This document shows positions 22,397 to 44,046 of a DNA stretch of 64,000 nt, piece by piece. The stretch is taken from the NCBI GenBank assembly GCA_964623775.1, contig CAZUVH010000001.1, positions 284,784-348,783 on the forward strand. The letters are read 5' to 3'. Source of the DNA: an uncultured Candidatus Saccharibacteria bacterium. Its GTDB lineage: Bacteria > Patescibacteriota > Minisyncoccia > Phycocordibacterales > UBA2100. Both the position numbers and the translations under genes were made by a program. The notes under the pieces were generated by a model. The model saw nothing but the letters and a program-made list of their open reading frames with translations, ran no database searches and had not been told where the DNA came from. The first letter of the stretch is position 1; each line of letters starts with the position of its first letter.

Positions 22397-22401
22397 GATC
22401 C

Positions 22402-23840: not shown

Positions 23841-24584
23841 ATGTTGACCGCTATAGTGCAGGCGAGGATGTCCTCGACAAGACTCCCCGGGAAAGTTCTA
23901 AAAGAAGTCCACAATAGGCCACTACTTTCCTACCTCATTGAGCGTTTACAGAGGGTGTCTGAAATAGAGAAGATCGTCGTAGCAACCACTGATAGTGTCG
24001 CTGATGATGCGATCGCCGAGTACTGCAAAAAAAATGGAATTTCTGTTTTCCGTGGATCGGAAAACGATGTACTCGATCGTTACATGAAGGCTGCCATGGA
24101 ATACAGCGCAAATCCCATAGTCCGCATCACAGGTGATTGCCCACTACTTGATGTTGATACGGTGCAAAAGCTGATCGAAGTGTATAAAAAAGGTGGGGTC
24201 GATTATGTGGTGACGGGGCAGTCTTTTACTGAGGGATTTGATTGTGAAATTTTTTCCCAAAAAATGCTCGAACTCTCTCATGTAAATGCCACAAAGTCGT
24301 CCGAGCGCGAACATGCAACACTGTATATGTACACTCATCCCGAGGTGTGTAGAAAATTCATCCTTGAAAATTCAACAGACGACAGTAGTTACCGCGTGAC
24401 AGTCGACGAACCGGAGGACTTTGCTGTGGTGAAAACTATCATTGAAGGTATCTATCCGAATAATTCAGAATTCACCGCAGGCGACATTAAAAATTTTTTA
24501 GACTCCCACCCTGAGATCAGAGACCTTAATAAGGGCATTGTTCGGAATGAAGGTCTCCTTAAATCGCTAGCAGATGAGAAGTAA
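23841..24584 (+). CDS. acylneuraminate cytidylyltransferase family protein (PseF/SpsF-like), paralog of 22986–23744, divergently transcribed
   Basis: The N-terminus is MLTAIVQARMSSTRLPGKVL. Further motifs are …VVATT…FRGSENDVLDRY and …RITGDCPLLD. Confidence 0.75.
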   Translation: MLTAIVQARMSSTRLPGKVLKEVHNRPLLSYLIERLQRVSEIEKIVVATTDSVADDAIAEYCKKNGISVFRGSENDVLDRYMKAAMEYSANPIVRITGDCPLLDVDTVQKLIEVYKKGGVDYVVTGQSFTEGFDCEIFSQKMLELSHVNATKSSEREHATLYMYTHPEVCRKFILENSTDDSSYRVTVDEPEDFAVVKTIIEGIYPNNSEFTAGDIKNFLDSHPEIRDLNKGIVRNEGLLKSLADEK

Positions 24585-24594: not shown

Positions 24595-25749
24595 ATGAGT
24601 ATGAAAGAAATCCAATATCGAGATCGCTCTTGTGATTGCTGTGGAAGCGTAGATCTGGAAAAGGTGTGGGACTATACTTACAATGCAAGAACAAAAAATG
24701 AGACGTACTTATGGCAAGTCACGAATGTCATTTGCCAGCATTGTGGTTTCGCGTTCGTCTCTCCGGTCCCTAAGCAGGAGAGCCTTGCTGATTATTACGC
24801 CAACTCCTTTGTTTCGCAGCAGGCGGAATTTTATTATTCCATCTCAAAAAGAGTCCAGCTCATCCGTAAATACACACCCTTGAGAAGGAGATCGCTTTTT
24901 GTCGAGGTGGGAAGCAACAATGACACGAAATTCCAAGAGGAATTAACAAAAGTAGTTGAGTATCACAATGTGGAGATCAATAAAAGCGCAGAAGCAGACT
25001 CTCGATCACTCACTGAGATATTGCCAAATAGCGTTGATATTGCAGCATTGTATTTTGTACTTGAACATATTCCCGACCTGAAAAATTTTCTCGTACAGTG
25101 CAGTGTAGTGTTGAAAGAACACGGAATATTGATCATTGAAGTGCCAGACGCATCCTTGTATGACGAGAGAAATGAAGGCCTTGTATTATGGGAGCACACA
25201 AATCATTTCACACCAAAGACGCTTGAGTATGTAGCCAGTCTCAACGGATTGCAGCTCCTCGAAGCGGGGCATGAGGCGTGCTCAAGAGATTTCGGATTTG
25301 CAGCCGTTTTTGAAAAAAAGACCGGGCCTATCGAGGTTCAAAAACCAGGTGCAGAAGAATACAGAAACACGTTATCGAAAATGCGCGCGGGCGTTAAGAA
25401 ATATGAAATTCGAAACGAAAAACTCAACGAGGTGAGACGCAAGATTGCCGCCACCGCAATCGCGGGAAAAAAAGTAACTTTGTGGGGCGCAACGAGTGTG
25501 TGCCAGGATCTTTTGAGCGGTTATGAATTACCGGAGTCCGTTTCCGTCGTGGACTCTGCTTTGCAAAAGAAGGATTTTTTGTCCGATAAGGGTGTTCAGG
25601 TGCGTTTACCGCAAGACGCATTTGCGCATATCGCGGAGACGGATCTTTTCGTAATAAACACGCAAGATTATAAAGAGGATATCCTTAATGACATCAAAAA
25701 AATGACAGGCAGGACATTAAATGAAAGTGAGTATATAGTGGTCAAATAA
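24595..25749 (+). CDS. C-methyltransferase family protein (TylCIII-like architecture: Zn-ribbon + MTase-like + C-methyltransferase C-terminal domain)
   Basis: The N-terminus has CDCCGS…CQHCG. Motif I is degenerate (LFVEVGSNND). The C-terminal domain (KKVTLWGATSVCQDLL…) resembles the C-terminal domains of the ORFs at 1–995 and 44761–46035. Confidence 0.6.
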   Translation: MSMKEIQYRDRSCDCCGSVDLEKVWDYTYNARTKNETYLWQVTNVICQHCGFAFVSPVPKQESLADYYANSFVSQQAEFYYSISKRVQLIRKYTPLRRRSLFVEVGSNNDTKFQEELTKVVEYHNVEINKSAEADSRSLTEILPNSVDIAALYFVLEHIPDLKNFLVQCSVVLKEHGILIIEVPDASLYDERNEGLVLWEHTNHFTPKTLEYVASLNGLQLLEAGHEACSRDFGFAAVFEKKTGPIEVQKPGAEEYRNTLSKMRAGVKKYEIRNEKLNEVRRKIAATAIAGKKVTLWGATSVCQDLLSGYELPESVSVVDSALQKKDFLSDKGVQVRLPQDAFAHIAETDLFVINTQDYKEDILNDIKKMTGRTLNESEYIVVK

Positions 25750-25769
25750 GGCTGAAATTTCGCTACCAT

Positions 25770-26984
25770 ATGCCCAAAAAGCGCCAAAAAAGAATACTGT
25801 TTATTGGGGCCGGTCCCTACCAAAAAAAGGGGATCGAGACTGCCAAGAAAATGGGTCTGTACGTAATCGCGGCGGATGGCAATCCCAACGCTCCAGGACT
25901 TCCCCTGGCTGATAAGGAATACGATGTCAACGTGACGGATGTAAATGCGAATTTGGAAATCGCGCGAAAGGAAAAGATCGATGGCGTATGTGCCGTAGCA
26001 TCTGATATAAGCATGCGAAGTGTCGCGACCATCAGCGAGATCCTCGGACTTCCCGGGATTTCGCGCGACGTAGCAGAAAGATGTCTTGATAAAGAGCTGA
26101 TGAGAAAGGCATTTGTCGCCGCTGGCGTCCCCTCGCCGAAGTCGTTTGCGGTCTATACAGTGCCCGAATTACTCAAAATCTCCAAACAACTTTCGTTCCC
26201 TGTTGTAATCAAGCCCTCTGACAGTGCCGGAAGCAGGGGAGTGAGAAGGGTGGATAGTCAAAAGGGTCTCAAAGACGCTTTTGAGAATGCAGTCGGACTC
26301 TCCTCGCAAAAAAAGGTGATTATCGAAGAGTTCATGGAAGGTGTTGAATGTTCAGTAGAAGCGTTTGTGGTGGGAGGAGAGATCCACATAATTACACTTT
26401 CCGATAAAGTGCGGACCAAGCCGCCAATCCTCACCGACATTGAGGTCTCTTTCCCCTCGGCCTATCCTGAAAAAATTCAGAAAGAAATTATCGATGTTGC
26501 AAAGCGCGCAATACGAGCAGTGGGCGTCAAGGATGCGCCGATTCACATGGAGCTGATGATGACAAAAAGCGGTCCAGTACCTGTAGAGCTTGCAGCACGC
26601 GGCCCCGGTTTTAAATTGTTTACCGATATCATTCCGGAGGTGACCGGTATAAATGTACTGAAAGCATTGATTGACCTCTCGGTCGGAAAGAAACCTGTCC
26701 TTCGTCGTGCAAAACATAAAGCATCCGTGATCAGATTCTTCTCGACAGAGGTCGCTGGTACGGTGAAGTCAATCGAGGGCGTGGAAGAAATACGGAAAAT
26801 GCGAGGCGTATACGAAATAATCATGTATGTAAATCCAGGTGATCGGGCCCGTGCACTCACGAGCGGACAGGATCGGCTCGGACACATCATTTCTATGGCG
26901 CCGTCTCTCGCGGAAGCTCATACGGTCGTAGAGAGGGCCCTTGCGAGATTATCGATCGAGATTACACCCGATGCTAAAAAATAA
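25770..26984 (+). CDS. ATP-grasp domain protein (carboxylate–amine ligase type)
   Basis: The sequence is RILFIGAGPYQ…LMRKAFVAAGVPSPKSF…SFPVVIKPSDSAGSRGV…IIEEFMEGVECSVEAFVV (pre-ATP-grasp plus ATP-grasp). Confidence 0.75.
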   Translation: MPKKRQKRILFIGAGPYQKKGIETAKKMGLYVIAADGNPNAPGLPLADKEYDVNVTDVNANLEIARKEKIDGVCAVASDISMRSVATISEILGLPGISRDVAERCLDKELMRKAFVAAGVPSPKSFAVYTVPELLKISKQLSFPVVIKPSDSAGSRGVRRVDSQKGLKDAFENAVGLSSQKKVIIEEFMEGVECSVEAFVVGGEIHIITLSDKVRTKPPILTDIEVSFPSAYPEKIQKEIIDVAKRAIRAVGVKDAPIHMELMMTKSGPVPVELAARGPGFKLFTDIIPEVTGINVLKALIDLSVGKKPVLRRAKHKASVIRFFSTEVAGTVKSIEGVEEIRKMRGVYEIIMYVNPGDRARALTSGQDRLGHIISMAPSLAEAHTVVERALARLSIEITPDAKK

Positions 26985-28164
26985 CAGCAATAAGAATTTT
27001 TTCTCCGAGCGCATCCTTCGCGTGCCGCCTTCCGGTACGATCGTATTAACCGATCGGGTACGAGAAATGAAAAAGGCTGGTGAAGATGTTGTTGATCTTA
27101 CGGTAGGGGAACCCAATTTTGATACACCCGTAGCAATAAAAGAAGCCGCTATCAGCGCGTTGAAAAAAGGCGAGACGAAATATGGCCCGAGTGCAGGGCT
27201 TTCTGAGCTGCGAAAGCTTATTGCAAAAAAGCTGCAATCAGAAAATAAAATAAATGTTGAAGAAAAAAATATATTAGTCACGCCGGGCGGCAAACAAGGA
27301 CTCGTGTATGCCTTCATGTCACTACTCAATGAGGGCGACGAAGTTGTCATCCCGGAGCCGACATGGGTAAGTTATTCTGCGATGGTCACGATCGCCGGTG
27401 GCGTACCTGTTGCGGTCGCGACTACTGAAGAGAATGGTTTTAAGGCGGACATACGAGATATTGAGTCGGCTATTACTAAACGGACGAAGCTCCTTGTCCT
27501 GGTAAATCCGGGTAATCCGACCGGAGTTCTTTATACAAAAAAGGATCTTGAGCGGATCGCAGAAGTGGTTGCCAAGCATGACCTTATTGTCGTTGCTGAT
27601 GAAATCTACGAAAAGATAGTTTTTGACAGTGTGCAATTTGTCAGTTTTGCCTCGCTTCCTGGTATGTTCCAAAGAACCGTCACCATCAATGGTTTCTCAA
27701 AGTCTCATGCGATGACTGGGTGGCGGCTCGGGTATGCGGCTGCGCCGGCGCCGATAATTGAAAAGATGCTCATCCTCCAGCAACAAATGGCGACGTGTCC
27801 GAATTCGTTCTCGCAATACGGAGCCGTGTATGCCTATTCGCACGAAATGCCTGAAGTAAAAAATATGGCCAGAGAATATGAGCGGCGTAGAAATACTTTC
27901 TACGAAGAAATAGAAAAAATACCGATGTATTCTGCATTACGACCCGAGGGATCGTTCTATTTATTTCTTAATGTTAAGAAATTCAAAAAAAATTCCCTCA
28001 GGGTAGCAGAAGAACTGCTGAAGACGGTAAAGCTTGCGACGGTGCCGGGGTCGTCATTTGGCGAGGCTGGCGAAGGGTACTTGCGACTCTCGTTCGCGAC
28101 GTCGGATAAAAACCTGAAAGAGGCAGTTTTGCGTCTGAAAAAATTCGCAGAACTCGCACATTAA
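26971..28164 (+). CDS. class I/II (aspartate-aminotransferase family) PLP-dependent aminotransferase
   Basis: The AAT-I lysine motif is present (TINGFSKSHAMTGWRLGYAAAP). The N-terminus is …FSERILRVPPSGTIVLTDRVREMKKAGEDVVDLTVGEPNFDTP. The start at 26971 overlaps the upstream gene by 14 nt. Confidence 0.85.
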   Translation: MLKNNSNKNFFSERILRVPPSGTIVLTDRVREMKKAGEDVVDLTVGEPNFDTPVAIKEAAISALKKGETKYGPSAGLSELRKLIAKKLQSENKINVEEKNILVTPGGKQGLVYAFMSLLNEGDEVVIPEPTWVSYSAMVTIAGGVPVAVATTEENGFKADIRDIESAITKRTKLLVLVNPGNPTGVLYTKKDLERIAEVVAKHDLIVVADEIYEKIVFDSVQFVSFASLPGMFQRTVTINGFSKSHAMTGWRLGYAAAPAPIIEKMLILQQQMATCPNSFSQYGAVYAYSHEMPEVKNMAREYERRRNTFYEEIEKIPMYSALRPEGSFYLFLNVKKFKKNSLRVAEELLKTVKLATVPGSSFGEAGEGYLRLSFATSDKNLKEAVLRLKKFAELAH

Positions 28165-28204
28165 CTGGCTTTGAATATCGTCCAGACTGGACTATATTCC
28201 TTAT

Positions 28205-29209
28205 ATGGAGGCTTTTCAGAAAGTGAACATTTTGGACTGCACGCTCCGTGATGGGAGCTATGCTGTTGACTATACATTTACCGCAGAAGACACGGCTAAA
28301 ATATGCACTGCCCTAGAGGGCGCGGGTGTTGAATATATAGAAATCGGTCACGGGGTCGGATTCAATGGCTCCGAAAAACACGGCAAGGCTGTCGCGACAG
28401 ACGAGGAGTATATAAGAGCGGCGGCAAGCGTTCTTAAAAAATCGAAATTCGGGATGTTCTGTATCCCCGGCATAGCCCGTCTCGAAGATCTTGATATGGC
28501 AGTAAGGTATGGAATGGGGTTTGTCCGCGTCGGCACCAATGTCAGTGAGGCCGAACAGTCAGAGCCTTTTATACGCAAGGCAAAGCAGCTCGGTATGCAT
28601 GTCAGCTTTAATATGATGAAGTCGTATGCCTTGCCTATAGATGAAGTCGTAAAAAAGGCGACGCTCGCGCGCAACTACGGTGCCGATGTCGTATCCGTTA
28701 TTGATTCAGCGGGTGGTATGTTGCCTGACGAGGTCTATGAATATGTCTCCAAGATCAAAAAAGAAGTCACGGGTATTGAGGTGGGTTTCCATGGGCACAA
28801 CAATTTGATGCTTGCGATGGCCAATTCTTTGGCGGCCGTCAAGGCAGGGGCGACATTCATAGACGCAACACTTCAGGGCATTGGAAGGAGTGTCGGTAAT
28901 ACACAGGCGGAGATACTGGTGCTTTTGCTCAATAAACTAGGATACAGGACGGGTATTGATGCGATAAAAATGATGGATGCGGGAGATTCGATCGTACGCC
29001 CGCTCATGCCGCAAGCGACAGGAATAGATTCGCTCAGTGCCACACTCGGAGCTGCTCAGTTCCATTCGAGCTTTCTTCCGATCGTCCAAAAGGTCGCAAA
29101 GGAACAAAGTATCGACGTCCGAAAACTGATCGGCGAAATTAGTAAGATCGATCGAATTACAGTGACTGAGGATCTCGCGAATAAAGTCGCGTCACAACTA
29201 AAAAAGTAA
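28205..29209 (+). CDS. HMGL-like (DRE-TIM) aldolase, 4-hydroxy-2-oxovalerate aldolase (DmpG/MhpE)-type
   Basis: The N-terminus ILDCTLRDGSYAVDYTF and the motifs …VEYIEIGHG…GFHGHNNLMLAMANSLAAVKAGA match DmpG/MhpE. At 334 aa it has no LeuA-type C-terminal domain. Confidence 0.75.
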   Translation: MEAFQKVNILDCTLRDGSYAVDYTFTAEDTAKICTALEGAGVEYIEIGHGVGFNGSEKHGKAVATDEEYIRAAASVLKKSKFGMFCIPGIARLEDLDMAVRYGMGFVRVGTNVSEAEQSEPFIRKAKQLGMHVSFNMMKSYALPIDEVVKKATLARNYGADVVSVIDSAGGMLPDEVYEYVSKIKKEVTGIEVGFHGHNNLMLAMANSLAAVKAGATFIDATLQGIGRSVGNTQAEILVLLLNKLGYRTGIDAIKMMDAGDSIVRPLMPQATGIDSLSATLGAAQFHSSFLPIVQKVAKEQSIDVRKLIGEISKIDRITVTEDLANKVASQLKK

Positions 29210-29214: not shown

Positions 29215-30378
29215 ATGAGCGCAAAGAAAGGTAAAAAGGATTTGATCCCGTACTCTCGTCAAACTGTCGATGCGGACGACATACGTGAAGTTGTTAAGAC
29301 CCTGAAGGCGCCGTTTCTTACGCAAGGGCCAAAAATCAAAGAATTTGAAGCGTTGGTTGCAAAATTTACAGGTACACGATTCGCCGTTGCGTTCTCAAAT
29401 GGCACGACCGCTCTTCATGCGGCCTATTCTGCTGCAGGCATCCGCGCGAATGACGAGGTCATCGTTCCCGCCCTGACGTTTGCTGCCACAAGCAATGCCG
29501 CTTTGTATCTCGGTGCGAAACCAGTCTTTGCAGATAGTGATATTCATACGGGCAATGTTGATCCGGCTGCGGTAGAGAGAAATGTAACGGGAAAAACGAA
29601 GGCGATTGTGGCGGTGGATTATGCGGGCAATCCCGCTGATCTTGCCGGGATGCGCAATATTGCCAAGAAACATAACCTTGTATTTATCGAAGATGGCGCC
29701 CAGAGCCTTGGCGCGACCTATCAGAAGCGATCCGTTGGTACGCAGGCAGACATGACGATGTTTAGCTTCCATCCGGTCAAATCAATTACCACGGCGGAGG
29801 GCGGGATAATCGTCACAGATAATGAGCGATACTACGAACATCTCATGATGTTTCGTACGCACGGAATGACTGCGGATTCAAAAAAAATGAATAACAAAAC
29901 GTATGCCAAATGGCACCGAGAGATGCATGTTCTCGGCAATAACTACCGTCTGAGTGATGTTCATGCTGCACTTGGTGTATCGCAGATGCGCAAACTACGA
30001 GGATTTATCGTTAAGCGGCGCGCGGCGGCGAAACGATATTTTTCGCTACTCAAAAATTTCGAGGGAATAAAGTTGCCGCCAATAGAGATTCTCGAATCGT
30101 CCGCGTGGCACCTTTTTCCAGTGCATGTGAATCCCCGTCACCGCGACGCGATTTTCAATGGACTTTTGGCAGCGGGCATCGGTGTGCAAGTTCATTATCT
30201 ACCGGTCTATATGCATCCGTACTACCAAGGTCTCGGATACCAAGAAGGGATTTGTCCAAATGCGGAGAAGTACGCCTTCTCAGAAATCTCGATACCGTTG
30301 TTTCCCGGTATTACACAGCGAGAGCAAGTTTACATCGCCAAGACCCTGATCAGGCTCGTGAAGGACCTCGATCGCTAG
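29215..30378 (+). CDS. pseC: UDP-4-amino-4,6-dideoxy-N-acetyl-beta-L-altrosamine transaminase-like DegT aminotransferase
   Basis: It is collinear with H. pylori PseC (…KTKAIVAVDYAGNPADL…FSFHPVKSITTAEGGIIVTDNERYYEHLMMFRTHGM…NYRLSDVHAALGVSQ…GIGVQVHYLPVY…). Confidence 0.85.
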   Translation: MSAKKGKKDLIPYSRQTVDADDIREVVKTLKAPFLTQGPKIKEFEALVAKFTGTRFAVAFSNGTTALHAAYSAAGIRANDEVIVPALTFAATSNAALYLGAKPVFADSDIHTGNVDPAAVERNVTGKTKAIVAVDYAGNPADLAGMRNIAKKHNLVFIEDGAQSLGATYQKRSVGTQADMTMFSFHPVKSITTAEGGIIVTDNERYYEHLMMFRTHGMTADSKKMNNKTYAKWHREMHVLGNNYRLSDVHAALGVSQMRKLRGFIVKRRAAAKRYFSLLKNFEGIKLPPIEILESSAWHLFPVHVNPRHRDAIFNGLLAAGIGVQVHYLPVYMHPYYQGLGYQEGICPNAEKYAFSEISIPLFPGITQREQVYIAKTLIRLVKDLDR

Positions 30379-30418: not shown

Positions 30419-31027
30419 ATGATCGCCATCGTTGATTATGGAATGGGGAACGTTAGATCAATGGTAAACGCGCTTGCGCGTATCGGCGCAGAAGGCATCG
30501 TTACATCAAAAGACAAAGATTTTGCACGTGCCACGCATATTATTTTCCCAGGTGTCGGAGCATTCAGTGATGGAATGCGTGAATTACATACGAGGGGAAT
30601 CATCCCGCTCCTTGAGCGTGAGGTATTGAAGCGAAAAAAGCCGTTTCTCGGAGTGTGTTTGGGCATGCAGTTGCTCATGGAAAAAGGTGAAGAAGGTGGC
30701 GAGATAGATGGTCTCGGATGGATATCTGGGAGGACGCGACGTCTTAGGGTCGACGAGCTCAAATTTCGTTTACCGCATATAGGGTGGAATGACGTACGCG
30801 TCAATGACTCAAAATTATTCACCGAAGTGAGTGCGCTCGATTTCTACTTCGTGCACAGCTTCGTGGTCGATCCCGAAGACGCGACGCTTGTCACAGGGAC
30901 TTGTGATTACGGTGAATCGTTCGTTGCGAGTGTGCAAAAGAACAACATATACGGCGTCCAGTTTCATCCGGAAAAAAGTCAGAAGAGTGGTTCACGGGTA
31001 CTCAAGAATTTTGTAAGCCTATGCTGA
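30419..31027 (+). CDS. HisH-like glutamine amidotransferase (second copy)
   Basis: The sequence is MIAIVDYGMGNVRSMVNAL…FPGVGAFSDGM…LGVCLGMQLLM…VQFHPEKS. Confidence 0.85.
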   Translation: MIAIVDYGMGNVRSMVNALARIGAEGIVTSKDKDFARATHIIFPGVGAFSDGMRELHTRGIIPLLEREVLKRKKPFLGVCLGMQLLMEKGEEGGEIDGLGWISGRTRRLRVDELKFRLPHIGWNDVRVNDSKLFTEVSALDFYFVHSFVVDPEDATLVTGTCDYGESFVASVQKNNIYGVQFHPEKSQKSGSRVLKNFVSLC

Positions 31028-31770
31028 AGATTCGTATAATTCCCACGCTCACAGTCAAGGCGGAGCGATTGGTAAAAAGTGTTAAATTCGAGAACCACCG
31101 AAATATTGGGAGCTCAATTGCGGCGGTACGAGTTTTCAATGCGCGCGACGTTGACGAGCTCGTCTTTCTGGATATCGATGCGCGTATGCGGGGTATTGAT
31201 ACGAGGTTACTCGAAGATGTGACAAAAGAATGCTGCATGCCGGTGACACTTGGTGGCGGCGTGAAAACCCTCGAAGACTTCAAAAAGATGCTCGCGATCG
31301 GGGCAGATAAGGTTGCAATAAATACTGTCGCTCTCGATGATCCCGATCTTATCGATGCGGCATCAAAAAGGTATGGAGCTCAATGCGTCGTCGTCTCGAT
31401 TGATGTCCGAAAAATCAATAGTGCGTACGAAGTATTTGGATGTGGTGGCAAGCAGGCAAGCGGAAAGGATCCGGTCGCCTGGGCAAAGGAAGTTGAGAAA
31501 CGAGGTGCTGGGGAGATTTTACTCACCTCGATTGATAACGATGGAGTTATGGAGGGATATGATCTCGAATTGATCAAAAAGGTCTCCTCTGCTGTGAGGA
31601 TACCCATCATTGCTTCGGGCGGAGCGGGGATACCAGCGCATTGTGTCGAGGCTGTTACCGCAGGCGCTTCTGCCGTCGCGGCAGCGAGCATCTTTCAGTA
31701 CACACAAACGACGCCGTCATCGATAAAGGAAGCGTTGAGGAATGCCGGTTTCCCCACGCGGGCCTCATAG
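31021..31770 (+). CDS. HisF-like cyclase subunit homolog (second copy)
   Basis: The sequence is MLKIRIIPTLTVKAERLVK…DELVFLDIDA…TLGGGVKT…SIDNDGVMEGYDLEL…IASGGAG. The start overlaps the upstream stop. Confidence 0.85.
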   Translation: MLKIRIIPTLTVKAERLVKSVKFENHRNIGSSIAAVRVFNARDVDELVFLDIDARMRGIDTRLLEDVTKECCMPVTLGGGVKTLEDFKKMLAIGADKVAINTVALDDPDLIDAASKRYGAQCVVVSIDVRKINSAYEVFGCGGKQASGKDPVAWAKEVEKRGAGEILLTSIDNDGVMEGYDLELIKKVSSAVRIPIIASGGAGIPAHCVEAVTAGASAVAAASIFQYTQTTPSSIKEALRNAGFPTRAS

Positions 31771-31819
31771 GCGCTTAAATTGGCATTCACGTGTTATTTC
31801 TGTAAGATGGTGAGCAACT

Positions 31820-32473
31820 ATGGGACGTACGAAGAAAACGAAGCAAATATCGCATTGGGCGGGTAAAAACGGTAATGCGTATGTAGACCGTAATCCGCAG
31901 ACCACAAAACAAATGGAGAGCCTCTACGCGAAAGATTATGGTGTAAGCCGAAGTTCGATGGATAAAGAATTTTTAAAATCGTTCAACAAGAAGAGTGCGT
32001 CCATTCTCGAAGTGGGGGCGAACGTTGGTACGCAGCTGCAATTTTTGCACGAGCACGGGTTTGCAAAACTTCTTGGCATCGATGTGAATCGCCACGCCAT
32101 AAAAGAAGCAAAGCGTCTTCGCCCGGACGTGGATATTATCGAGGCGTCGGGTTTTGACCTGCCGTTTAAAGACGGAGCGTTTGACCTCGTCTATACTTCA
32201 GGCGTTCTCATTCATATCTCACCAAAAGATATTAAAGACATCATTCGTGAGATGTATCGCGTGTCCCGAAAATATATTTGGGGATTCGAATACTATGCGC
32301 CGAAATATACAGCGGTGACCTACCGCGGAAAAAAGGATCTTTTATGGAAGACGGATTTTGCGGCGCTTTTCCAAAAAGAATTTCCGGATCTAAAAGTCGT
32401 GAAGGAAAAGATCTATAAAATGTCAGACGGTGTAAACGCGACCAAGATGTATTTATTGAAAAAAAGTAACTAA
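31820..32473 (+). CDS. class I SAM-dependent methyltransferase (pseudaminic-acid-biosynthesis-associated methylase-like)
   Basis: Motif I is SILEVGANVGTQL, followed by …LLGIDVN…LVYTSGVLIHISP. The 217-aa gene is embedded between HisF-like and PseA-like genes. That placement matches the ~210-aa methyltransferase family described next to Pse genes. Confidence 0.7.
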   Translation: MGRTKKTKQISHWAGKNGNAYVDRNPQTTKQMESLYAKDYGVSRSSMDKEFLKSFNKKSASILEVGANVGTQLQFLHEHGFAKLLGIDVNRHAIKEAKRLRPDVDIIEASGFDLPFKDGAFDLVYTSGVLIHISPKDIKDIIREMYRVSRKYIWGFEYYAPKYTAVTYRGKKDLLWKTDFAALFQKEFPDLKVVKEKIYKMSDGVNATKMYLLKKSN

Positions 32474-32474
32474 C

Positions 32475-33632
32475 ATGCTCCGGTATTGTACGAAATGCGT
32501 AATGCCCGATACAAAACCTGATCTTTCATTTGACGAAGACGGGGTGTGCGACGCGTGTCGCTCGGCTTCGCATAAGGGTGAAATAGACTGGAGTGCGCGC
32601 GAGGAAGAATTTAAGGACCTGGTGGCAAGGTTCAAAAATAGCGATGGTACGAAGTATGACTGTATTATTCCGATATCGGGCGGGAAGGATAGTCACTACC
32701 AGGCGTTTATGGCCCGAAAATACGGACTCAATCCGCTCATGGTTCATTTCGAGCCCACGATGCGCACCGATCTCGGTCTGAAAAATCTCGAAAATATTCG
32801 CCAATTCGGAGACGTGATCGAGCTCAGGAAAAATCCGTCAGTATACAGAAAAATGGCCGTCGAAGGGTTTCGTCGTGTCGGCGACAATGAGTGGCCGAAT
32901 CACGTGGGTATTTTCACGTTTCCGATAAGAATTGCGGTTGCCTATAAAATACCACTCATTATTTGGGGCGAGAATTCTCAGCTCGAATATGGCGGCCCGA
33001 AGGCGGCCCGAATGAAGAATGTACTCGATCGTCGGTGGCTCGAAGAATTTGGCGGGCTCCTCGGACTACGCATTGAGGACATGATTGGCGTAGACGGTAT
33101 CAAGCATGAAGACCTCATCTCGTTTTTCTATCCGAGTGAGACAGAATTGAAAGATGCGGGAATCACAGGGGTCTTTTTGGGGTATTACTTCAAATGGGAT
33201 GCTCGGTCGCAGGTCAAGCTCATGCAGGAGCATGGTTTTTCTCTGAAAAAAGGGAAGCCAGTCGAGGGCACATATACGCATTATGAAAATTTGGATGAAG
33301 CGACCGTTGCCGTTCACGACTATCTCAAGTTCGTAAAATTTGGATTTGGAAGGACCACTGACCACGTGTGTCTTGATATAAGAAATGGCCGGATGACCAG
33401 GGATGAGGGCGTGAGACTCGTAAAAAAATACGACGGCAAATTGCCAAAAATCTCCATCACTGATTTTCTGAAGTTTTCCGGCATGTCTCGAAAAGAGTTT
33501 GATGGCGTGGTGGATTCATTTACCAATAAGGCGCTTTTCAAGACCGATGCAAAAGGGAGGTTACTTCGAGACAAGAGCGGCAGCTTGATTAAAAAGTATT
33601 CAGATTACGCGATTGAGGCTCAGCGTGGCTGA
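32475..33632 (+). CDS. N-acetyl sugar amidotransferase (WbuX/PseA-like, second copy)
   Basis: The N-terminus is CTKCVMPDTKPDLSFDEDGVCDACRS. The PP-loop is ISGGKDSHY. Its overall collinearity with 12046–13224 makes it a paralog. Confidence 0.8.
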   Translation: MLRYCTKCVMPDTKPDLSFDEDGVCDACRSASHKGEIDWSAREEEFKDLVARFKNSDGTKYDCIIPISGGKDSHYQAFMARKYGLNPLMVHFEPTMRTDLGLKNLENIRQFGDVIELRKNPSVYRKMAVEGFRRVGDNEWPNHVGIFTFPIRIAVAYKIPLIIWGENSQLEYGGPKAARMKNVLDRRWLEEFGGLLGLRIEDMIGVDGIKHEDLISFFYPSETELKDAGITGVFLGYYFKWDARSQVKLMQEHGFSLKKGKPVEGTYTHYENLDEATVAVHDYLKFVKFGFGRTTDHVCLDIRNGRMTRDEGVRLVKKYDGKLPKISITDFLKFSGMSRKEFDGVVDSFTNKALFKTDAKGRLLRDKSGSLIKKYSDYAIEAQRG

Positions 33633-33647: not shown

Positions 33648-34112
33648 ATGGACCAACCCCTTACGTTGCGACGAGTTACGAAAGACGATGCGAAACTTCT
33701 TTATGAGTGGCGTAACGACGAGGAGACCCGGAAACAGTCTCAAAGTATCACACCTGTTGAGTGGGATGAGCATGCGCACTGGATCGAAAACTCACTAAAA
33801 AATCCTGATCGAATTCTTGTCATTGCCGAACGCGGGGGCACGCCCGTTGGCACATGCCGGGCTGATGTGCGAGCCGACGGTTTTACGGAGATATCATACA
33901 CAATTGCTCCGCAGGAGAGAGGCAGGGGACTGAGTAAGCCAATGGTCCAACAGTTCGTAAAAGAATATTTAGAGGGGCGGCGCTTGGCCGCACACATAAA
34001 AAAGGGACACAAGCAGTCAGAGTCGGTTGTAATTGCTCTCGGGATGAAGCCTTTTTTGGAGATACCATCAAAAGACCAAAATGACACCAGGCTGATCGTC
34101 GAGTGGCGATGA
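33648..34112 (+). CDS. small GNAT acetyltransferase, PseH-like (UDP-4-amino-sugar N-acetyltransferase candidate)
   Basis: The 154-aa sequence is LRRVTKDDAKLLYEWRNDEETRKQS…ILVIAERGGTPVGTCR. It lies between PseA-like and NeuB-family genes. Its size and pattern resemble PseH. Confidence 0.55.
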   Translation: MDQPLTLRRVTKDDAKLLYEWRNDEETRKQSQSITPVEWDEHAHWIENSLKNPDRILVIAERGGTPVGTCRADVRADGFTEISYTIAPQERGRGLSKPMVQQFVKEYLEGRRLAAHIKKGHKQSESVVIALGMKPFLEIPSKDQNDTRLIVEWR

Positions 34113-34140: not shown

Positions 34141-35181
34141 ATGCAGATAGGTAAGCGGAAGATTGGTAAGGGGCAACCTGTTTTCGTTATTGCCGAGATA
34201 TCGGGCAACCACAATCAGGACATTAATCGCGCCTACGCGATTATTGATGCCGCTGCTGAAGCGGGTGCAGATGCCGTAAAACTTCAAACCTATACGCCGG
34301 ATACCATTACTATCGATTCAGACCAGGAGTATTTTGTAGTTAGGTACAAGAATCCAGATTGGAAGGGCAAAACGTTGTTTCAGTTGTATGGAGAAGCATA
34401 TACACCTTGGGATTGGCAGCCTAAATTAAAGGAATACGCTGAAAAAAAGGGCCTCATTTGTTTCTCATCGCCATTTGATACCACATCCGTTGATTTTTTG
34501 GAGAAAATGCACGTTCCGGCGTATAAAGTCGCCTCTCCCGAGGTTGTTGATGTGCCACTTCTCGAGAGAATAGGTAAGACAAAAAAACCCGTCATTATGT
34601 CGCGCGGGATGGCGAAGCCCGACGAATTACGTTTTGCTATCAAGACCCTAAAAGGGAGCGGTACTAAAGAGGTGGCGATTCTACACTGCGTGAGCGCATA
34701 TCCCGCAATACCTGAGGAGATGAATCTTGCGACCATTCCAGATATCTCAAAACGTTTTAATGTGGTCGCGGGCCTTTCTGATCATACGCTCGGGATCGAG
34801 GTGCCTGTGGCCGCCGTTGCATTAGGGGCATTGATAATCGAGAAACATCTTACGATGAAACGATTTGATGGAGGTCCTGATGCATCCTTCTCTCTTGAGC
34901 CATCCGAATTCAAAGCGATGGTTTCGGCGATTCGAATTACTGAAAAGTCTGTCGGTAAGCCGATGTATACGTTGCTCGCAGAAGAGAATATCCTCGGTAG
35001 AAAATCTTTATTTATTGTGAAAGATGTAAAAAAGGGAGATTTGTTTACTCCGGAGAACGTTAGATCGATTCGCCCCGGCCATGGACTTGCGCCAAAGTAT
35101 TACAAAAAAGTAATAGGTAAGCGTGCAAAGATGGATGCAAAGAGGGGCACACCACTTTCTCGGGGCCACGTGAGCATATAA
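34141..35181 (+). CDS. pseI: NeuB-family nonulosonic acid synthase (pseudaminic acid synthase candidate) with C-terminal SAF domain
   Basis: The sequence is PVFVIAEISGNHNQDINRAYAIIDAAAEAGADAVKLQTY…GLSDHTLGIEVPVAAVALGA. The C-terminal SAF domain is LFIVKDVKKGDLFTPENVRSIRPG. The assignment as pseI, as opposed to neuB or legI, rests on the co-located pseB/pseC. Confidence 0.8.
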   Translation: MQIGKRKIGKGQPVFVIAEISGNHNQDINRAYAIIDAAAEAGADAVKLQTYTPDTITIDSDQEYFVVRYKNPDWKGKTLFQLYGEAYTPWDWQPKLKEYAEKKGLICFSSPFDTTSVDFLEKMHVPAYKVASPEVVDVPLLERIGKTKKPVIMSRGMAKPDELRFAIKTLKGSGTKEVAILHCVSAYPAIPEEMNLATIPDISKRFNVVAGLSDHTLGIEVPVAAVALGALIIEKHLTMKRFDGGPDASFSLEPSEFKAMVSAIRITEKSVGKPMYTLLAEENILGRKSLFIVKDVKKGDLFTPENVRSIRPGHGLAPKYYKKVIGKRAKMDAKRGTPLSRGHVSI

Positions 35182-36598: not shown

Positions 36599-38134
36599 AT
36601 GCATTCACTTCGTGGAAAACGCGTCCTTATGATCCAGCAGCGAAGCTGGGGCGTGAATGTCGGTCACCATATTGCAAAAGAGCTTCAAAACGAGGGATGT
36701 CTTCTTGCTGCCGTCACGTATAAGAAAAGCATGCACGCGTTCCATGCATCCCAGAAAGACGTTCGTTATGAAATGTTGATCAGCAACGATGCGGTGTACG
36801 AAAATCCGGAGATGTATATAAAGGAGTCTCCCAAGAGTCTTTCGGAGATCACTGAGGCTCTTGGTATCGAAAGCATATGGCCACTCGTCGCGGGCTCGAG
36901 GGAAGTCACCCGGTCATATGGCGAAAAGTATTTTTTTGCCGGAAGGCAGCAGATGTCTGACGATGAGATCATCCACTATATTCAAGGCGCTTTTGCGTAT
37001 GCCACAGAAATATTTGACACTTTTAAGCCGGATGTAATCGTGGCGCCGCTCATAGCAGAGCCATCACATATGATCTTGTATCACCTCGGGCGGATGCGCG
37101 GGATCTATCCCGTCATCGCTACGGATTCAAAAGTTCGCGGAGTATTTATCGTGGTCACGAGTCCTTGGGAAGATTCCGGGCCCTTCTTCGATCGAATCAA
37201 GGAGCTCAATGATGGAATTGAAAGTAAGAATGCGGCTCGAGCACAGGAATACATTCGACGCTTCAGGGAGAAATTTATGCCGCCCCTTTGGGCGGACCGT
37301 TTTCTTCAAGTAGGGTCACTCTGGAAGAGGATTCGTTCAGAGCTTGCGCCATACCGGCTTATATTTCAGTGGTATGTAAACCCTAATTCGAACTGTGATT
37401 GTGTAAAGCCACTTGGCCCCACGCTCGATTGTAGACCCCCGCGAATCATCCTGCGCGACCACTACACAAAGCTAATGCGGACCAGGGCAGCGAAGAAATT
37501 CCCATATTTCCCGCCTGATCGCGTGAAGGAATACGCGTATTATCCTTTGCAGGTCGAGCCGGAAACCACGCTCGATATTATGGCGCTGAATTTTAGCGAT
37601 CAACGTGAGCTAATCCGCAACATCGCACTTTCCCTTCCAGGGGGGATGACGCTCGTCGTCAAAGATCATCCCGCGATGCTTGGGCTGCGCACAGCGGAGT
37701 ACCTTGAAGATATATCTCGCATGCCTAATGTAAAATTGGTGGACTATCGAATACCCAATGAAAGATTGATTCGTTCGGCGTCGCTTGTATTGGCACCGAA
37801 TGCGACGGCTCATGCTGAGGCGACTATGTACGGTATCCCGGGCGTTCAATTCGGACGTCAGGGGACGACACTCAAGCTCCCGAACGTCATCCGGCACACG
37901 GACTACACGACGCTTCCCGCACGCATTGCGGAGCACCTGAGGAAGAAATTCGATACCGCCGAATATGAGCAGTTATTGAACAATTTTGTAGCCTCAGCCT
38001 ATGATGTGGGGGTAGAGACTGACTATTCCAAGGCGTGGGACTACGGAAAAAAAGAGGAACTCGATGCCATGTGGCGACTCTACAGAGGTGGAATCGAGCA
38101 CGTCTTGCAAAAGAGTGCGCGTGACACAGGCTGA
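36599..38134 (+). CDS. KpsS/KpsC-like capsule-polysaccharide-synthesis family protein (second paralog), putative CMP-nonulosonate transferase
   Basis: The motifs YAYYPLQVEPETT, TLVVKDHPAM and VLAPNATAHAEAT match the same family as 14845–16272. Confidence 0.6.
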   Translation: MHSLRGKRVLMIQQRSWGVNVGHHIAKELQNEGCLLAAVTYKKSMHAFHASQKDVRYEMLISNDAVYENPEMYIKESPKSLSEITEALGIESIWPLVAGSREVTRSYGEKYFFAGRQQMSDDEIIHYIQGAFAYATEIFDTFKPDVIVAPLIAEPSHMILYHLGRMRGIYPVIATDSKVRGVFIVVTSPWEDSGPFFDRIKELNDGIESKNAARAQEYIRRFREKFMPPLWADRFLQVGSLWKRIRSELAPYRLIFQWYVNPNSNCDCVKPLGPTLDCRPPRIILRDHYTKLMRTRAAKKFPYFPPDRVKEYAYYPLQVEPETTLDIMALNFSDQRELIRNIALSLPGGMTLVVKDHPAMLGLRTAEYLEDISRMPNVKLVDYRIPNERLIRSASLVLAPNATAHAEATMYGIPGVQFGRQGTTLKLPNVIRHTDYTTLPARIAEHLRKKFDTAEYEQLLNNFVASAYDVGVETDYSKAWDYGKKEELDAMWRLYRGGIEHVLQKSARDTG

Positions 38135-38161: not shown

Positions 38162-39199
38162 TTATCGGCTTTCCTTCCTCAGCCTCTCGTAGTCCGATTT
38201 TGCCATCATTTGTACGAGCTCCTCAAAAGAGGTTTTTGGCTTCCATCCCAATTTTTTCGCAGCTTTTGAAGGGTCACCACGGAGCCAATTAACTTCACGC
38301 GGACGGTAGAATTTTTTATCTATTGAGAGAATCGTGCTGCCTTTCTCGTCGACGCCGATCTCCTTGAGCCCCGACCCCTTCCATGTAATTTTCATATCAA
38401 GCGCCCGTGCTGTGGCTTCGACGAACTCCCTGACCGTGTGCGAAACTCCGGTAGCGATCACAAAATCATCCGGCTTTTTTTGCTGCAGCATCAGGTGCAT
38501 CATCTGCACATAGTCGCCGGCAAAACCCCAGTCCCGCTTCGCTTCGAGATTGCCAAGGGCAAAACTTTTTTGAAGCCCTAACTTTATTTTTGCGAGCGAA
38601 ATAGTGATTTTACGAGTCACAAAATGCTCTCCGCGTCGGGGAGACTCGTGATTGAAAAGAATGCCCGAGCAAATGTAGAGCCCGTGCTTTTCCCGGTACG
38701 AGACGACAAAGTCTTCATGTGCCTTTAGCTTCGCCTCACCGTATGGTGATACGGGTACAAATGGTGATTTTTCATTTTGTGGAGGTGGGGTCGATCCGTA
38801 CATTTCACTCGTCGAAGCTTGGTATATACGTGCTCTCGGCACAATTTTCATCGCTTCATGCACGAGACGTCCAAGTCCGAAATAATCTATCTCGAGCGTT
38901 TCCTCCGGACAAAGAAAGGAAATACCGACATCAGACTGAGCGGCCAGATTGTAGATCTCATCAGGCTTCGATGTCTCCAATGCTCTCGCCAAAGATGCGC
39001 TATCGCGTAAGTTGCCATAGCAAAGATGAAATTTTTTTGACGGTATCAGGGTGCGAAGCCGGGAAGTCGGATCCGAACTCGATCGCCGGAGCAATCCCCA
39101 GACCTCGTACCCGAGCGAAAGCAAGTGCTCAGCAAGATACGAACCATCTTGACCGGTAATACCGGTAATCAGCGCCCGTTTCTGCTTTTTAGACCTCAT
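38162..39199 (-). CDS. gmd: GDP-mannose 4,6-dehydratase
   Basis: The sequence is ALITGITGQDGSYLAEHLL…YEVWGLLRRSSS…IYNLAAQSDVGISF…QASTSEMYG…NHESPRRGE. The start is at MRSKKQK (39199). Confidence 0.9.
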   Translation of the reverse strand: MRSKKQKRALITGITGQDGSYLAEHLLSLGYEVWGLLRRSSSDPTSRLRTLIPSKKFHLCYGNLRDSASLARALETSKPDEIYNLAAQSDVGISFLCPEETLEIDYFGLGRLVHEAMKIVPRARIYQASTSEMYGSTPPPQNEKSPFVPVSPYGEAKLKAHEDFVVSYREKHGLYICSGILFNHESPRRGEHFVTRKITISLAKIKLGLQKSFALGNLEAKRDWGFAGDYVQMMHLMLQQKKPDDFVIATGVSHTVREFVEATARALDMKITWKGSGLKEIGVDEKGSTILSIDKKFYRPREVNWLRGDPSKAAKKLGWKPKTSFEELVQMMAKSDYERLRKESR

Positions 39200-39207
39200 G
39201 ACTGCGG

Positions 39208-39236
39208 ATTTTATCTTGCGCGACCCTATTTCGCAA
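39208..39236 (-). promoter_or_regulatory. candidate promoter for gmd (minus strand TTGCGA-17-TAAAAT, ~8 nt before ATG)
   Basis: The reverse complement of 39231–39236 is TTGCGA. A 17-nt spacer follows. The reverse complement of 39208–39213 is TAAAAT. Confidence 0.35.
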
Positions 39237-39353
39237 CGACCAATTTTTCTTGCCCGTACTCGGGCATAGAAACAATGGAAGTACTCTTGTGGTGCGACCA
39301 ATTTTTCTTAGGGCTTTGCCCTTAGAAACAATGGAAGTGCCCTTGTGGCGCGA
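39236..39353. repeat. two tandem ~58-bp direct repeats, each containing a short hairpin (gcccgTACTcgggc / agggcTTTgccct)
   Basis: Unit 1 is cgaccaatttttctt[gcccgtactcgggcat]agaaacaatggaagtactcttgtggtgcg. Unit 2 is cgaccaatttttctt[agggctttgcccttag]aaacaatggaagtgcccttgtggcgcg. They lie between the GT4 stop and the gmd start. Confidence 0.8.
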
Positions 39354-40541
39354 CTACTCCTTGATCAGATTTTGGTAAAAACTGAGCCACTCCGCACTTC
39401 GTTCAGCACCTCTCATTGTGGCGAGTGTTGCCTTGCCGCCATTTTGCAGCCGTTGGCATAGATCTGGATCTCGCATCACGTCTTCGATTCCCCCCGCAAG
39501 TGCGTGTGGGTCCTCTGGTCTTACAAGATACGCATTCTCGCCATGAGTCAGAAAATCTGTGAGCGCGTCCACGCGAGAGGCGATCACGGGCTTATTCATC
39601 TCAAACGCTTCGAGCGGGACGAGTCCGTACCCTTCGTATCTCGAAGGCACTATGATAAGTGAGCTTTTCTCAAATACGCTTTTTAGATCCGTATTCGAAG
39701 GAACTCTGCCGAGAAAGACGACACGATCGCGTATATCAAGTGAATCGACAAGATGCGCGAACTCGTCTGTTTCGATGAGTGAAGATGAGCTTACAAAAAC
39801 GAATTTCGGGAGCACCTCGCGTGAGACATGTGGTATCGCGCGAAGAAGTATGTCCCACCCCTTACGCGGTTTCATCTGGCCGACGAAAAGCCCGTATGAT
39901 TCCTGCGGAAGTCGTCCGACAATCCCGCTGGGTACCTCGGTTGTTTCCCAGCGTTGCTCGTCAGCCACCAAGGGGATATAGCGGGCATTTTTGATCCCGA
40001 GTTCTTGAGCGATTGGTATGTTGTGTTTGGAATAAAAAACCACCGCGTCGGCATGCATGAGCGGCCAGTGGAAAAAATAACTACGCCACGCCTTAAAAGC
40101 GAATCGTTTCGGGACGCGCTCGTATGCGATGGGCTTTCCGAGCGGATCGTCACGATCCTCGACAAGGTAGTGGTCGTGAAGAAGCCCAGCTTCGGTGAAA
40201 GCGACCGGAATTCCAAAAATTTTTGCAAGCATTGCCGCAACGACACCGACCCTGTTGTTACGCAGCATGTGGACGTGAACAGCATCCGGGCGCTCCGTAA
40301 TCATGAGCACTACCACACGCAGCACGCCAGAAAGAAAACTGCGATATTTATGTACATGTACGCCTGACACTGTAGAGTTGGGCATCTCACCTTTTTCCAT
40401 CCGAGCGATTCCCAGCACCCGCCAGCCGTTCTTGGCCAGCATCCTGCTCAGGATGAATTCCGGAAACATCGTGAGGCGATCGTTGAAACCATAGGGGATC
40501 ACGACGAGGATGGTTGGTTGTTTCGTCATGGTTTTACACAA
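39354..40541 (-). CDS. glycosyltransferase family 4
   Basis: The C-terminal GT4 motif is present (FVSSSSLIETDEF…LIIVPSRYEGYGLVPLEAFEMNKPVIASRVDALTDFL…GENAYLV). Confidence 0.85.
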   Translation of the reverse strand: MCKTMTKQPTILVVIPYGFNDRLTMFPEFILSRMLAKNGWRVLGIARMEKGEMPNSTVSGVHVHKYRSFLSGVLRVVVLMITERPDAVHVHMLRNNRVGVVAAMLAKIFGIPVAFTEAGLLHDHYLVEDRDDPLGKPIAYERVPKRFAFKAWRSYFFHWPLMHADAVVFYSKHNIPIAQELGIKNARYIPLVADEQRWETTEVPSGIVGRLPQESYGLFVGQMKPRKGWDILLRAIPHVSREVLPKFVFVSSSSLIETDEFAHLVDSLDIRDRVVFLGRVPSNTDLKSVFEKSSLIIVPSRYEGYGLVPLEAFEMNKPVIASRVDALTDFLTHGENAYLVRPEDPHALAGGIEDVMRDPDLCQRLQNGGKATLATMRGAERSAEWLSFYQNLIKE

Positions 40542-41338: not shown

Positions 41339-41379
41339 TGGCGTTTCTTGGTTTTAAGTGATATTTTGCCCTCTATACC

Positions 41380-42183: not shown

Positions 42184-42274
42184 ACACCGTTTTGCCCCTT
42201 GATTTACGTTACGTTTGTGCCCTATTGACCCCGCGCATTTTTTGAACCAAGATGCACGTGTCAGGCCATATTTC

Positions 42275-44043: not shown

Positions 44044-44046
44044 ACC

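Follow-up and report, generated by a model that had tools for sequence, protein, structure and literature searches.

A 64,000-nucleotide stretch of contig CAZUVH010000001.1, from an uncultured Candidatus Saccharibacteria bacterium (positions 284,784 to 348,783; hereafter the window), encodes two sets of a HisH-like glutaminase, a HisF-like barrel protein and an N-acetyl sugar amidotransferase (NASAT) of the WbuX/PseA/WbpG family. Trio 1 (HisH1, X1 and HisF1) and trio 2 (HisH2, HisF2 and X2, with the methylase MT2 among them) are listed with their neighbours in Table 1. The most probable explanation, to which a probability of about 0.6 is given, is that the window carries a single pseudaminic acid (Pse) pathway with two non-redundant amidination modules, drawn from different ancient clades of the NASAT family. 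The enzymatic activity of the two modules, their common use of Pse as substrate and their complementarity are predicted from gene content, motifs, clade membership and synteny.

Both trios are recognized by curated family models with E-values of 1e-60 to 1e-116. In trio 2, the HisH, methylase and WbuX models all match above their cutoffs, which bears out the trio proposed in the initial annotation of this DNA, including its placing of the methylase among the pseudaminic-associated type (TIGR03587). The gene orders it had given, H-X-(GIY-YIG)-F for trio 1 and H-F-(methylase)-X for trio 2, are also correct. All four genes of trio 2 are uninterrupted open reading frames (ORFs), tightly packed in the ORF list for 29.0-35.5 kb, with the HisH2 and HisF2 frames overlapping by 7 nt; the frames of HisH1 and X1 overlap by 4 nt. 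The packed or overlapping arrangement is consistent with co-transcription. Scans for promoters and terminators stayed at chance level, and an Rfam scan gave no match. Both NASATs have the zinc-binding tetracysteine, located at C17/C20/C37/C40 in X1 (G35-V-C37-N-I-C40) and at C5/C8/C25/C28 in X2 (G23-V-C25-D-A-C28). They also have the PP-loop SGGKDS, which is invariant (S79-G80-G81-K82-D83-S84) among 10 aligned NASAT sequences. These are the characteristics of the family (CxxC...[GN]xCxxC and SGGxDS), for which a chemistry converting ATP to AMP and PPi has been proposed (PMC10607449). Orthologues of X1 are 71-76% identical in Patescibacteria and 49-57% across many phyla; those of X2 in Patescibacteria reach up to 81%. 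The best homologues of X1, X2 and MT2 all come from Patescibacteria, namely Kaiserbacteria, Wildermuthbacteria, Taylorbacteria, Uhrbacteria and others, and it is on such matches that the placing of the source in Patescibacteria, as a Kaiserbacteria-like bacterium, is based.

The initial annotation regarded the two trios as diverged paralogs, and this is borne out by protein identities of 37% (X), 50% (H) and 49% (F) together with the separate clades of their NASATs. A recent duplication was ruled out, as blastn between the two regions returned merely 163 nt at 66% and 33 nt at 82% identity, two short and trivial matches. Its description of trio 2 as a second, rearranged copy is wrong: the trios are two ancient lineages, each gene order already exists in orthologous loci, and the one local change of order is the GIY-YIG gene inserted into trio 1. 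On a neighbour-joining tree of 157 NASATs, the X1 clade spans many phyla, archaea included, while the X2 clade in this sample is made up mostly of Patescibacteria metagenome contigs. The "second X" genes from several of the double-trio loci group as a third clade, and a fourth holds LpNASAT of Legionella pneumophila (8WEX), with identities of 32% to X2 and 28% to X1.

The two gene orders can be seen apart from each other in Kaiserbacteria. Two loci with X1-type genes only (L001 and L002) read ABC-Caps-...-H-X-F-GNAT1, and one with an X2-type gene only (L003) reads ABC-CT-...-Caps-CT-H-F-MT-X-PseB-PseC-...-GNAT2-PseI, where CT stands for cytidylyltransferase, MT for the methylase and Caps for a Capsule_synth-like protein. 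The order CT-H-F-MT-X occurs in L003, L084 and L112, which also keep GNAT2 adjacent to PseI. The HisH and HisF partners have co-diverged with their own X. HisF1 is 71% identical to the F protein of L001 and 48% to that of L003, whereas HisF2 is 68% identical to that of L003 and 47% to that of L001; HisH2 is likewise closer to the H protein of L003 (62%, X2-type) than to that of L001 (53%, X1-type). The nearest neighbour was tied to the same X clade for 121 of 122 F proteins and 117 of 124 H proteins.

The company kept by each NASAT type was surveyed with X1 or X2 as seed and flanks of up to 10 kb, giving 79 X1-type loci (reference genomes) and 80 X2-type loci (metagenomes); the counts below are for the 60 and 34 of these, respectively, that extend 4 kb or more to either side. 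A HisH-like gene was found within 4 kb in 60/60 X1-type and 33/34 X2-type loci, and a HisF-like gene in 57/60 and 33/34. Genes of the NeuB family (42/60 and 32/34) and of the PseB family (39/60 and 27/34) were frequent with both types. The acetyltransferase GNAT1 occurred in 39/60 X1-type and 7/34 X2-type loci, a class-III aminotransferase (AT3) in 46/60 and 2/34, and a cytidylyltransferase gene lay next to the X2-type trio in 21 of the 34 loci. A recurrent X1-type layout is PseB-DegT-(AKR)-X1-H-F-GNAT1-CT-AT3-(GNAT2)-PseI, and X2-type layouts are CT-H-F-MT-X or (MT)-CT-X-H-F. In L001, the nearest X1-type Kaiserbacteria locus, PseB (475 bits) and PseC (473 bits) both score above cutoff.

This company of Pse genes indicates that both clades belong to Pse-type pathways. 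A tblastn search of the window with pathway proteins found PseB, PseC-type and NeuB-family genes once each, PseC standing directly upstream of trio 2. A second nonulosonate synthase serving trio 1 was considered and rejected, since the search found no second NeuB-family gene and, besides the three pathway genes, an unrelated DegT gene. With both clades at home in Pse clusters and one Pse pathway in the window, it is most likely that both trios tailor Pse and not a hexosamine. The "amidino hexosamine" that the initial annotation had offered as one option is disfavoured by the NeuB- and PseB-family frequencies around X1-type genes and by the PseB and PseC of L001.

Thirteen loci with two NASATs were found, namely the window and L033, L038, L059, L061, L062, L066, L068, L072, L075, L086/087, L116 and L155. 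Different clades are paired in 11 of the 13, and L062 and L066 alone pair two X1-clade genes. Two HisH/HisF pairs are present in L038, L061, L068 and L075, the second set being in the order H-F-X, and the second NASATs of L038, L068, L072 and L075 constitute the third tree clade, with that of L061 on a separate deep branch. These five nonulosonate clusters come from Alphaproteobacteria, Burkholderiales and Magasanikbacteria, and each has its second NASAT alongside a trio of X1 type. Two trios in one cluster are thus moderately unusual at most, as double-NASAT clusters recur in other phyla; the alignment in the LpNASAT paper includes three Vibrio vulnificus and two Campylobacter paralogs (PMC10607449). 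Such an excess of cross-clade pairs is more readily explained by complementary specificities than by redundancy. The earlier prediction of two distinct amidino groups therefore stands as the best reading, given that 11 of the 13 pairs are cross-clade, with its hexosamine variant disfavoured and its di-amidino variant possible.

That the HisH-like and HisF-like proteins are not histidine biosynthesis genes, as the initial annotation had expected, was examined through a residue census of 144 HisF-like proteins from NASAT loci L001-L162. The ammonia-gate residues R5, E46, K99 and E167 are kept in HisF1, HisF2 and 142-144 of the 144 relatives, and D130, present in HisF2, is kept in 143. The cyclase residue Asp11 is lost in 143/144, being replaced by Leu (102), Thr (26) or Gln (15); it is Leu in HisF1 and Thr in HisF2. 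The roles of the gate and of Asp11 are established from work on Thermotoga maritima HisF. Both HisH1 and HisH2 have the Cys-His-Glu signature (G-x-C-x-G-x-Q, H-P-E), in HisH2 as the nucleophile elbow GVCLGMQ and the HPE His-Glu pair. A conserved gate, a lost Asp11 and an intact HisH triad together fit a glutaminase and an ammonia channel feeding the NASAT. It is hardly credible, then, that these proteins provide the organism's own imidazole glycerol phosphate synthase for making histidine. Both H proteins pass the TIGR01855 model and the F proteins score 258-274 bits with the hisF model, but these latter scores are under the 294.55 cutoff and under the WbuZ scores, no other his gene is present among the annotated ORFs of the 64 kb, and each pair stands beside a NASAT as do the HisH-like genes of the surveyed loci. 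For both F proteins, the AglZ/HisF2 model ranks second or third. Loss of Asp11 with an invariant gate is a simple discriminator of NASAT-associated HisF proteins from true HisF.

The methylase MT2 is wedged between HisF2 and X2, a position kept in the closest relatives. Among the tabulated loci, 16/34 of X2 type and 0/60 of X1 type have one of its orthologues (TIGR03587, 43-83% identity) within 4 kb of the NASAT gene (Fisher p = 4.8e-9). A further seven loci were seeded on methylases 50-56% identical to MT2 and taken with 8 kb either side. A NASAT is present in three of these, L165 (H-F-MT-X), L168 (X-H-F-MT) and L167 (X-MT). The other four (L163, L164, L166 and L169) have PseB, PseC and PseI, with a cytidylyltransferase in three, but no NASAT, HisH or HisF within the 8 kb either side, and in L163, L164 and L166 genes for a formyltransferase and a PIG-L deacetylase are found in place of the amidotransferase. 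Such NASAT-less TIGR03587 loci were seen in Planctomycetota and other Pse clusters. The TIGR03587 family therefore needs no amidine, and what it methylates is more probably something that Pse derivatives share, or else a basic nitrogen whose nature varies. A search of PDB sequences with MT2 returned generic matches to the SAM-binding core alone (E ~4e-8, phosphoethanolamine N-methyltransferases).

An N-methyl-acetimidoyl group, which the initial annotation had suggested as the outcome of this methylation, can be entertained as the product of MT2 but is on balance doubtful. The H-F-MT-X synteny and the precedent for legionaminic acid (Leg) make it reasonable: PtmH forms CMP-Leg5AmNMe7Ac from CMP-Leg5Am7Ac, and in Legionella the 5-acetimidoyl group of Leg is methylated by ORF8 (PMC3766260, PMC13306086). 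It is weakened by the four methylase loci that have no NASAT. The location of MT2 inside a Pse cluster is as the family name implies. The nearest Patescibacteria have H-F-MT-X, whereas elsewhere the methylase neighbours pseC or pseF, whether or not a NASAT is present; TIGR03587 itself is a hypothetical-equivalog family whose substrate is not known.

In the mechanism proposed here, the HisH-like subunit would hydrolyse glutamine, and the ammonia would pass through the HisF-like barrel, with its conserved gate and lost Asp11, to the NASAT. The latter, a zinc ribbon joined to a PP-loop ATP pyrophosphatase, would adenylate the carbonyl of the sugar N-acetyl group, and ammonia would then displace AMP to leave an acetamidino group, AMP and PPi. 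Module 1 (H1-X1-F1) would be coupled to the acetyltransferase GNAT1 and module 2 (H2-F2-MT2-X2) to the Pse-associated methylase and to GNAT2-PseI, such that the cluster may be a composite of two widespread Pse-tailoring sets. The predicted product is Pse with amidino groups of two specificities, either at different N positions or on different Pse derivatives. Protein P0227 from a JGI metagenome (559 aa) has an N-terminal GNAT1-like domain (41% identity) fused to an X1-like NASAT (57%), which points to a coupling, in the X1-type module, between the acetylation of a nitrogen and its amidination. If Campylobacter and Tannerella are a guide, tailoring probably takes place on the CMP-sugar before transfer; the products of PseA (CMP-Pse5Ac7Am) and of PtmG (CMP-Leg5Am7Ac) both arise at this stage (PMC13317340, PMC5378307).

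Several observations weigh against the reading of one Pse pathway with two complementary modules. PseG had no match among the window ORFs scanned and PseF and PseH are weakly recognizable, which leaves PseC, PseI and a borderline PseB to carry the assignment of the pathway. The tree does not include PseA, PtmG, WbuX, WbpG or AglX, and LpNASAT, its sole characterised-family reference, falls outside both the X1 and the X2 clade. The global statistic of H/F co-divergence is confounded by taxonomy, for which the Kaiserbacteria comparison provides a clean control. The pairing of an X1-type with an X2-type gene specifically is rare in the surveys, and because of this, complementarity is inferred from the clade-pair statistics.

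A more specific version would have both trios acting on one Pse residue, at N5 and N7, with the methylase N-methylating one amidine to give a 5,7-di-acetimidoyl, N-methylated Pse. The window has one PseB, one PseC and one PseI, its NASATs conform to the cross-clade pairing of 11/13 loci, and in some double-X loci (L068 and L072) PseI, GNAT and cytidylyltransferase genes are likewise present once each. Natural amidination of Pse is known at N5 (Pse5Am7Gra of Tannerella forsythia) and at N7 (Pse5Ac7Am of Campylobacter jejuni) (PMC5378307), the N-methylation of an acetimidoyl group is established for Leg with PtmH or ORF8, and the conserved location of MT2 would suit this product. Against it, no Pse5Am7Am, Leg5Am7Am or di-N-acetimidoyl sugar was found in the open-access literature searched, the methylase family does without a NASAT in 4/7 loci, and the window's pairs of GNATs, cytidylyltransferases and Capsule_synth-like proteins would fit two end products equally well. 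This structure is considered unlikely, though it is the strongest of the competing explanations. Unlikely to the same degree is the broader proposal of a Pse with amidino groups on both N5 and N7 and a methyl group there or elsewhere, displayed on the surface of an ultra-small bacterium of the candidate phyla radiation (CPR), with the X1 and non-X1 clades being the N7- and N5-specific enzymes.

Distinctly less probable is that trio 1 acts on some other N-acetylated sugar, either an amino-deoxyhexose made via the DegT gene or a product of the CDP-sugar genes at 42-46 kb. Analogous enzymes do exist in WbuXYZ (FucNAm), WbpG (ManNAc3NAmA) and AglXYZ, and the NASAT family includes hexosamine and uronic-acid enzymes (PMC10607449). 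Further amino-sugar genes in the window, besides DegT, encode C-methyltransferases and a GFO/IDH/MocA oxidoreductase; PseC is 16 kb downstream of trio 1, whose own neighbours are the ABC exporter and heptose genes, and 18 of the 60 X1-type loci have no NeuB-family gene within 10 kb. This is countered by the NeuB- and PseB-family genes of the majority of X1-type loci, which come from many phyla and share a recurrent layout, by the PseB and PseC of L001, and by GNAT1, whose sole sugar-specific match, below cutoff, is the PseH model. Still less should be expected of redundancy, in which the trios would be isozymes that share both position and substrate, or one of them would be in decay after two clusters had merged. 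One trio does suffice in most genomes, a second X being present in 7/60 X1-type and 2/34 X2-type loci. In Campylobacter a single HisH/HisF pair reportedly serves two NASATs, which was also counted in favour of redundancy. However, the proteins of both trios are full length, align over their whole length to orthologues, and have all catalytic and structural motifs intact with no frameshift, thus agreeing with the initial annotation, which had seen no sign of a pseudogenised duplicate. Furthermore, X1 and X2 share just 37% identity and belong to separate deep clades, cross-clade pairs recur independently in several phyla, and the arrangement of trio 1 is reproduced in independent samples. A single Pse pathway with two modules of different specificity hence remains the preferred explanation.

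Known systems resemble the window in part. The flagellin locus of Campylobacter jejuni and C. coli also has two NASAT paralogs, PseA and PtmG, in one nonulosonate region (PMC13317340, PMC3766260); there, too, amidination tailors Pse and Leg at the CMP-sugar stage and a methyltransferase gene (PtmH) adjoins one of the amidotransferases. The Campylobacter NASATs, however, serve two sugars (Pse and Leg) that are made by separate synthases, whereas the window has a single Pse pathway in which each NASAT has its own HisH/HisF pair. In addition, the MT2 family also occurs without a NASAT, and the host is a CPR bacterium in which a flagellin context was not seen. T. forsythia, with its Pse5Am7Gra, was dropped as a guide to the regiochemistry of X1-type enzymes, since the authors report no PseA/PtmG homologue in that genome.

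The same three-protein architecture is found in WbuX/Y/Z of Escherichia coli O145 (L-FucNAm), WbpG-HisH2/HisF2 of Pseudomonas aeruginosa O5 (ManNAc3NAmA) and AglX/Y/Z of Methanococcus maripaludis. These amidinate hexosamine or uronic-acid N-acetyl groups in O-antigens or N-glycans, while the clades represented in the window are embedded in Pse clusters; both F proteins of the window score just under the WbuZ equivalog cutoff. LpNASAT is, to our knowledge, the only NASAT with a solved structure, and X2 aligns with it over 336 residues (E=1.8e-51, 32% identity), the tetracysteine and PP-loop being common to both. It differs in belonging to a separate clade and in having Leg, not Pse, as its sugar. 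The activity of the solved LpNASAT was not demonstrated (PMC10607449). In Legionella, as predicted for one option here, a cluster-encoded methyltransferase (ORF8) N-methylates a nonulosonate acetimidoyl group. The two trios are a solid but rather ordinary addition to an enzyme system already known, and do not amount to a new type.

Table 1. Amidination trios, pseudaminic acid genes and neighbouring features of the window, by position.
Feature	Coordinates	Strand	Length, best matches and remarks
ADP-heptose-type genes	1-9578		heptosyltransferase-like 4740; HldD-like epimerase 6479; GmhA fusion 7477; HldE kinase domain 8607
DegT gene	996-2198		
ABC exporter	9578-11380		
HisH1 (H1), glutaminase subunit	11405-12049	+	TIGR01855 234.9 bits; GLCLGMQ and HPE motifs
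X1, NASAT of the X1 clade	12046-13224	+	TIGR03573 333.2 bits (cutoff 203.2)
GIY-YIG small ORF between X1 and HisF1	13255-13524	+	89 aa; PF01541 61.7 bits
HisF1 (F1), WbuZ-like barrel	13521-14300	+	WbuZ 290.5 bits (cutoff 299.7); hisF 273.9 bits
GNAT1, N-acetyltransferase linked to X1-type trios	14297-14848	+	PF13302 97.8 bits; PseH model 47.6 (cutoff 93.1)
Capsule_synth-like (KpsS/KpsC-like) protein	14845-16272	+	large; weak Pfam relation
SucC-like, SucD-like and citryl-CoA-lyase/citrate-synthase-C-terminal-like genes	16293-19014	+	
PseB-type UDP-GlcNAc 4,6-dehydratase	20448-21437	+	TIGR03589 398.8 bits (cutoff 407.75), borderline
DUF218 gene	22375-22956	+	
Second CTP_transf_3 cytidylyltransferase, divergent	22986-23744	-	KdsB-like 76 bits; PseF model 23.7 (cutoff 205.7)
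CTP_transf_3 cytidylyltransferase, PseF candidate	23841-24584	+	KdsB-like 68.7 bits; PseF model 34.4 (cutoff 205.7)
Four-gene block from cytidylyltransferase to PseC	24595-29209	+	methyltransferase-like; ATP-grasp ligase; class I (aspartate-type) aminotransferase; 4-hydroxy-2-oxovalerate aldolase (306.7, NCBIfam cutoff 286)
PseC aminotransferase	29215-30378	+	TIGR03588 432 bits (cutoff 423.5)
Trio 2	30419-33632	+	
HisH2 (H2), class I glutamine amidotransferase/glutaminase subunit	30419-31027	+	202 aa; TIGR01855 233.8 bits (cutoff 105.4); PF00117
HisF2 (F2), WbuZ-like (beta-alpha)8 barrel, putative ammonia channel	31021-31770	+	249 aa; WbuZ TIGR03572 293.2 bits (cutoff 299.7); hisF TIGR00735 257.6 (cutoff 294.55)
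MT2, S-adenosylmethionine (SAM)-dependent methylase	31820-32473	+	217 aa; TIGR03587 182.5 bits (cutoff 112.05); Methyltransf_11/25
X2, NASAT (WbuX/PseA/WbpG family)	32475-33632	+	385 aa; TIGR03573 387.5 bits (cutoff 203.2)
GNAT2, N-acetyltransferase adjoining PseI, PseH candidate	33648-34112	+	PF13302 59.4 bits; PseH model 35.8 (cutoff 93.1)
PseI, pseudaminic acid synthase	34141-35181	+	TIGR03586 455.8 bits (cutoff 340.25)
Capsule_synth-like (KpsS/KpsC-like) protein	36599-38134	+	large; weak Pfam relation
Further sugar genes	38162-48732		GDP-mannose 4,6-dehydratase (-); glucose-1-phosphate cytidylyltransferase; CDP/dTDP-sugar dehydratase; two sugar C-methyltransferases; further methyltransferases

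The trios are part of a glycan island of ~50 kb that takes up most of 0-50 kb of the window, nearly all on one strand (ORFs of at least 150 aa were annotated). Its sugar-gene repertoire, with ADP-heptose-type genes at one end and nucleotide-sugar and C-methyltransferase genes at the other, is unusually rich for a CPR bacterium with a small genome. The two CTP_transf_3 paralogs are head to head and 41% identical. A search of PDB sequences with GNAT2 gave no match. The DUF218 gene is conserved as a neighbour of PseI in many X2-type loci and, in L001, as a fusion with PseC, which makes it a candidate for the missing pathway step, no PseG-type hydrolase having been found among the ORFs scanned.

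Trio 1 sits between the ABC exporter and GNAT1, which is followed by the first of the two Capsule_synth-like proteins, four genes from the exporter; in L001 a homologue of this protein directly adjoins the exporter. As the Capsule_synth-like proteins are kept in Kaiserbacteria Pse clusters, they are candidates for CMP-Pse-dependent transferases. The SucC/SucD/lyase-like genes that follow have counterparts, with a Citrate_bind domain, in a Pse cluster of Uhrbacteria (L165, 738-3227), where PseB and PseC flank them. They look like a two-step module of the ATP-citrate-lyase type, perhaps a local source of acetyl-CoA or another acyl-CoA for N-acylation in a bacterium whose central metabolism is minimal. 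The four-gene block upstream of PseC, in which the aldolase passes its cutoff, could build an unusual hydroxy-amino-acid substituent and attach it to a sugar.

The GIY-YIG ORF within trio 1 is no part of the amidination enzyme system. It is missing from the orthologous Kaiserbacteria loci L001 and L002, and its GC content at third codon positions is 0.43, against 0.57-0.60 in the genes on either side. It overlaps the GTG start of HisF1, which possibly begins instead at an ATG at 13530, as called in the Logan assembly L171. A GIY-YIG gene of 52% identity (14185-14451) stands at the same position, directly 5' of a HisF-like gene, in L070, an unrelated gammaproteobacterial X1-type locus, and the ORF may be a mobile or homing gene tied to wbuZ-like genes. 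The order X1-GIY-YIG-F1-GNAT1 was re-assembled from two independent read sets (SRR12822863 and SRR12808459).

An amidino, possibly methylated, Pse would shift the charge of the cell surface from acidic to zwitterionic or cationic. In pathogens, amidino Pse affects adhesion, autoagglutination, phage recognition and immune recognition. Patescibacteria have tiny genomes and rely on cell-cell contact with a host, and here about 50 kb are devoted to decorated sugars. The absence of a tie between the TIGR03587 methylase and amidination corrects an attractive but unsupported inference in annotation. For the NASAT family at large, this study indicates a split into deep clades that tend to co-occur as cross-clade pairs. 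We know of no NASAT that has yet been assayed in vitro, and two NASAT clades on one Pse backbone would offer a ready test bed for N5 versus N7 specificity, a minor but genuine question.

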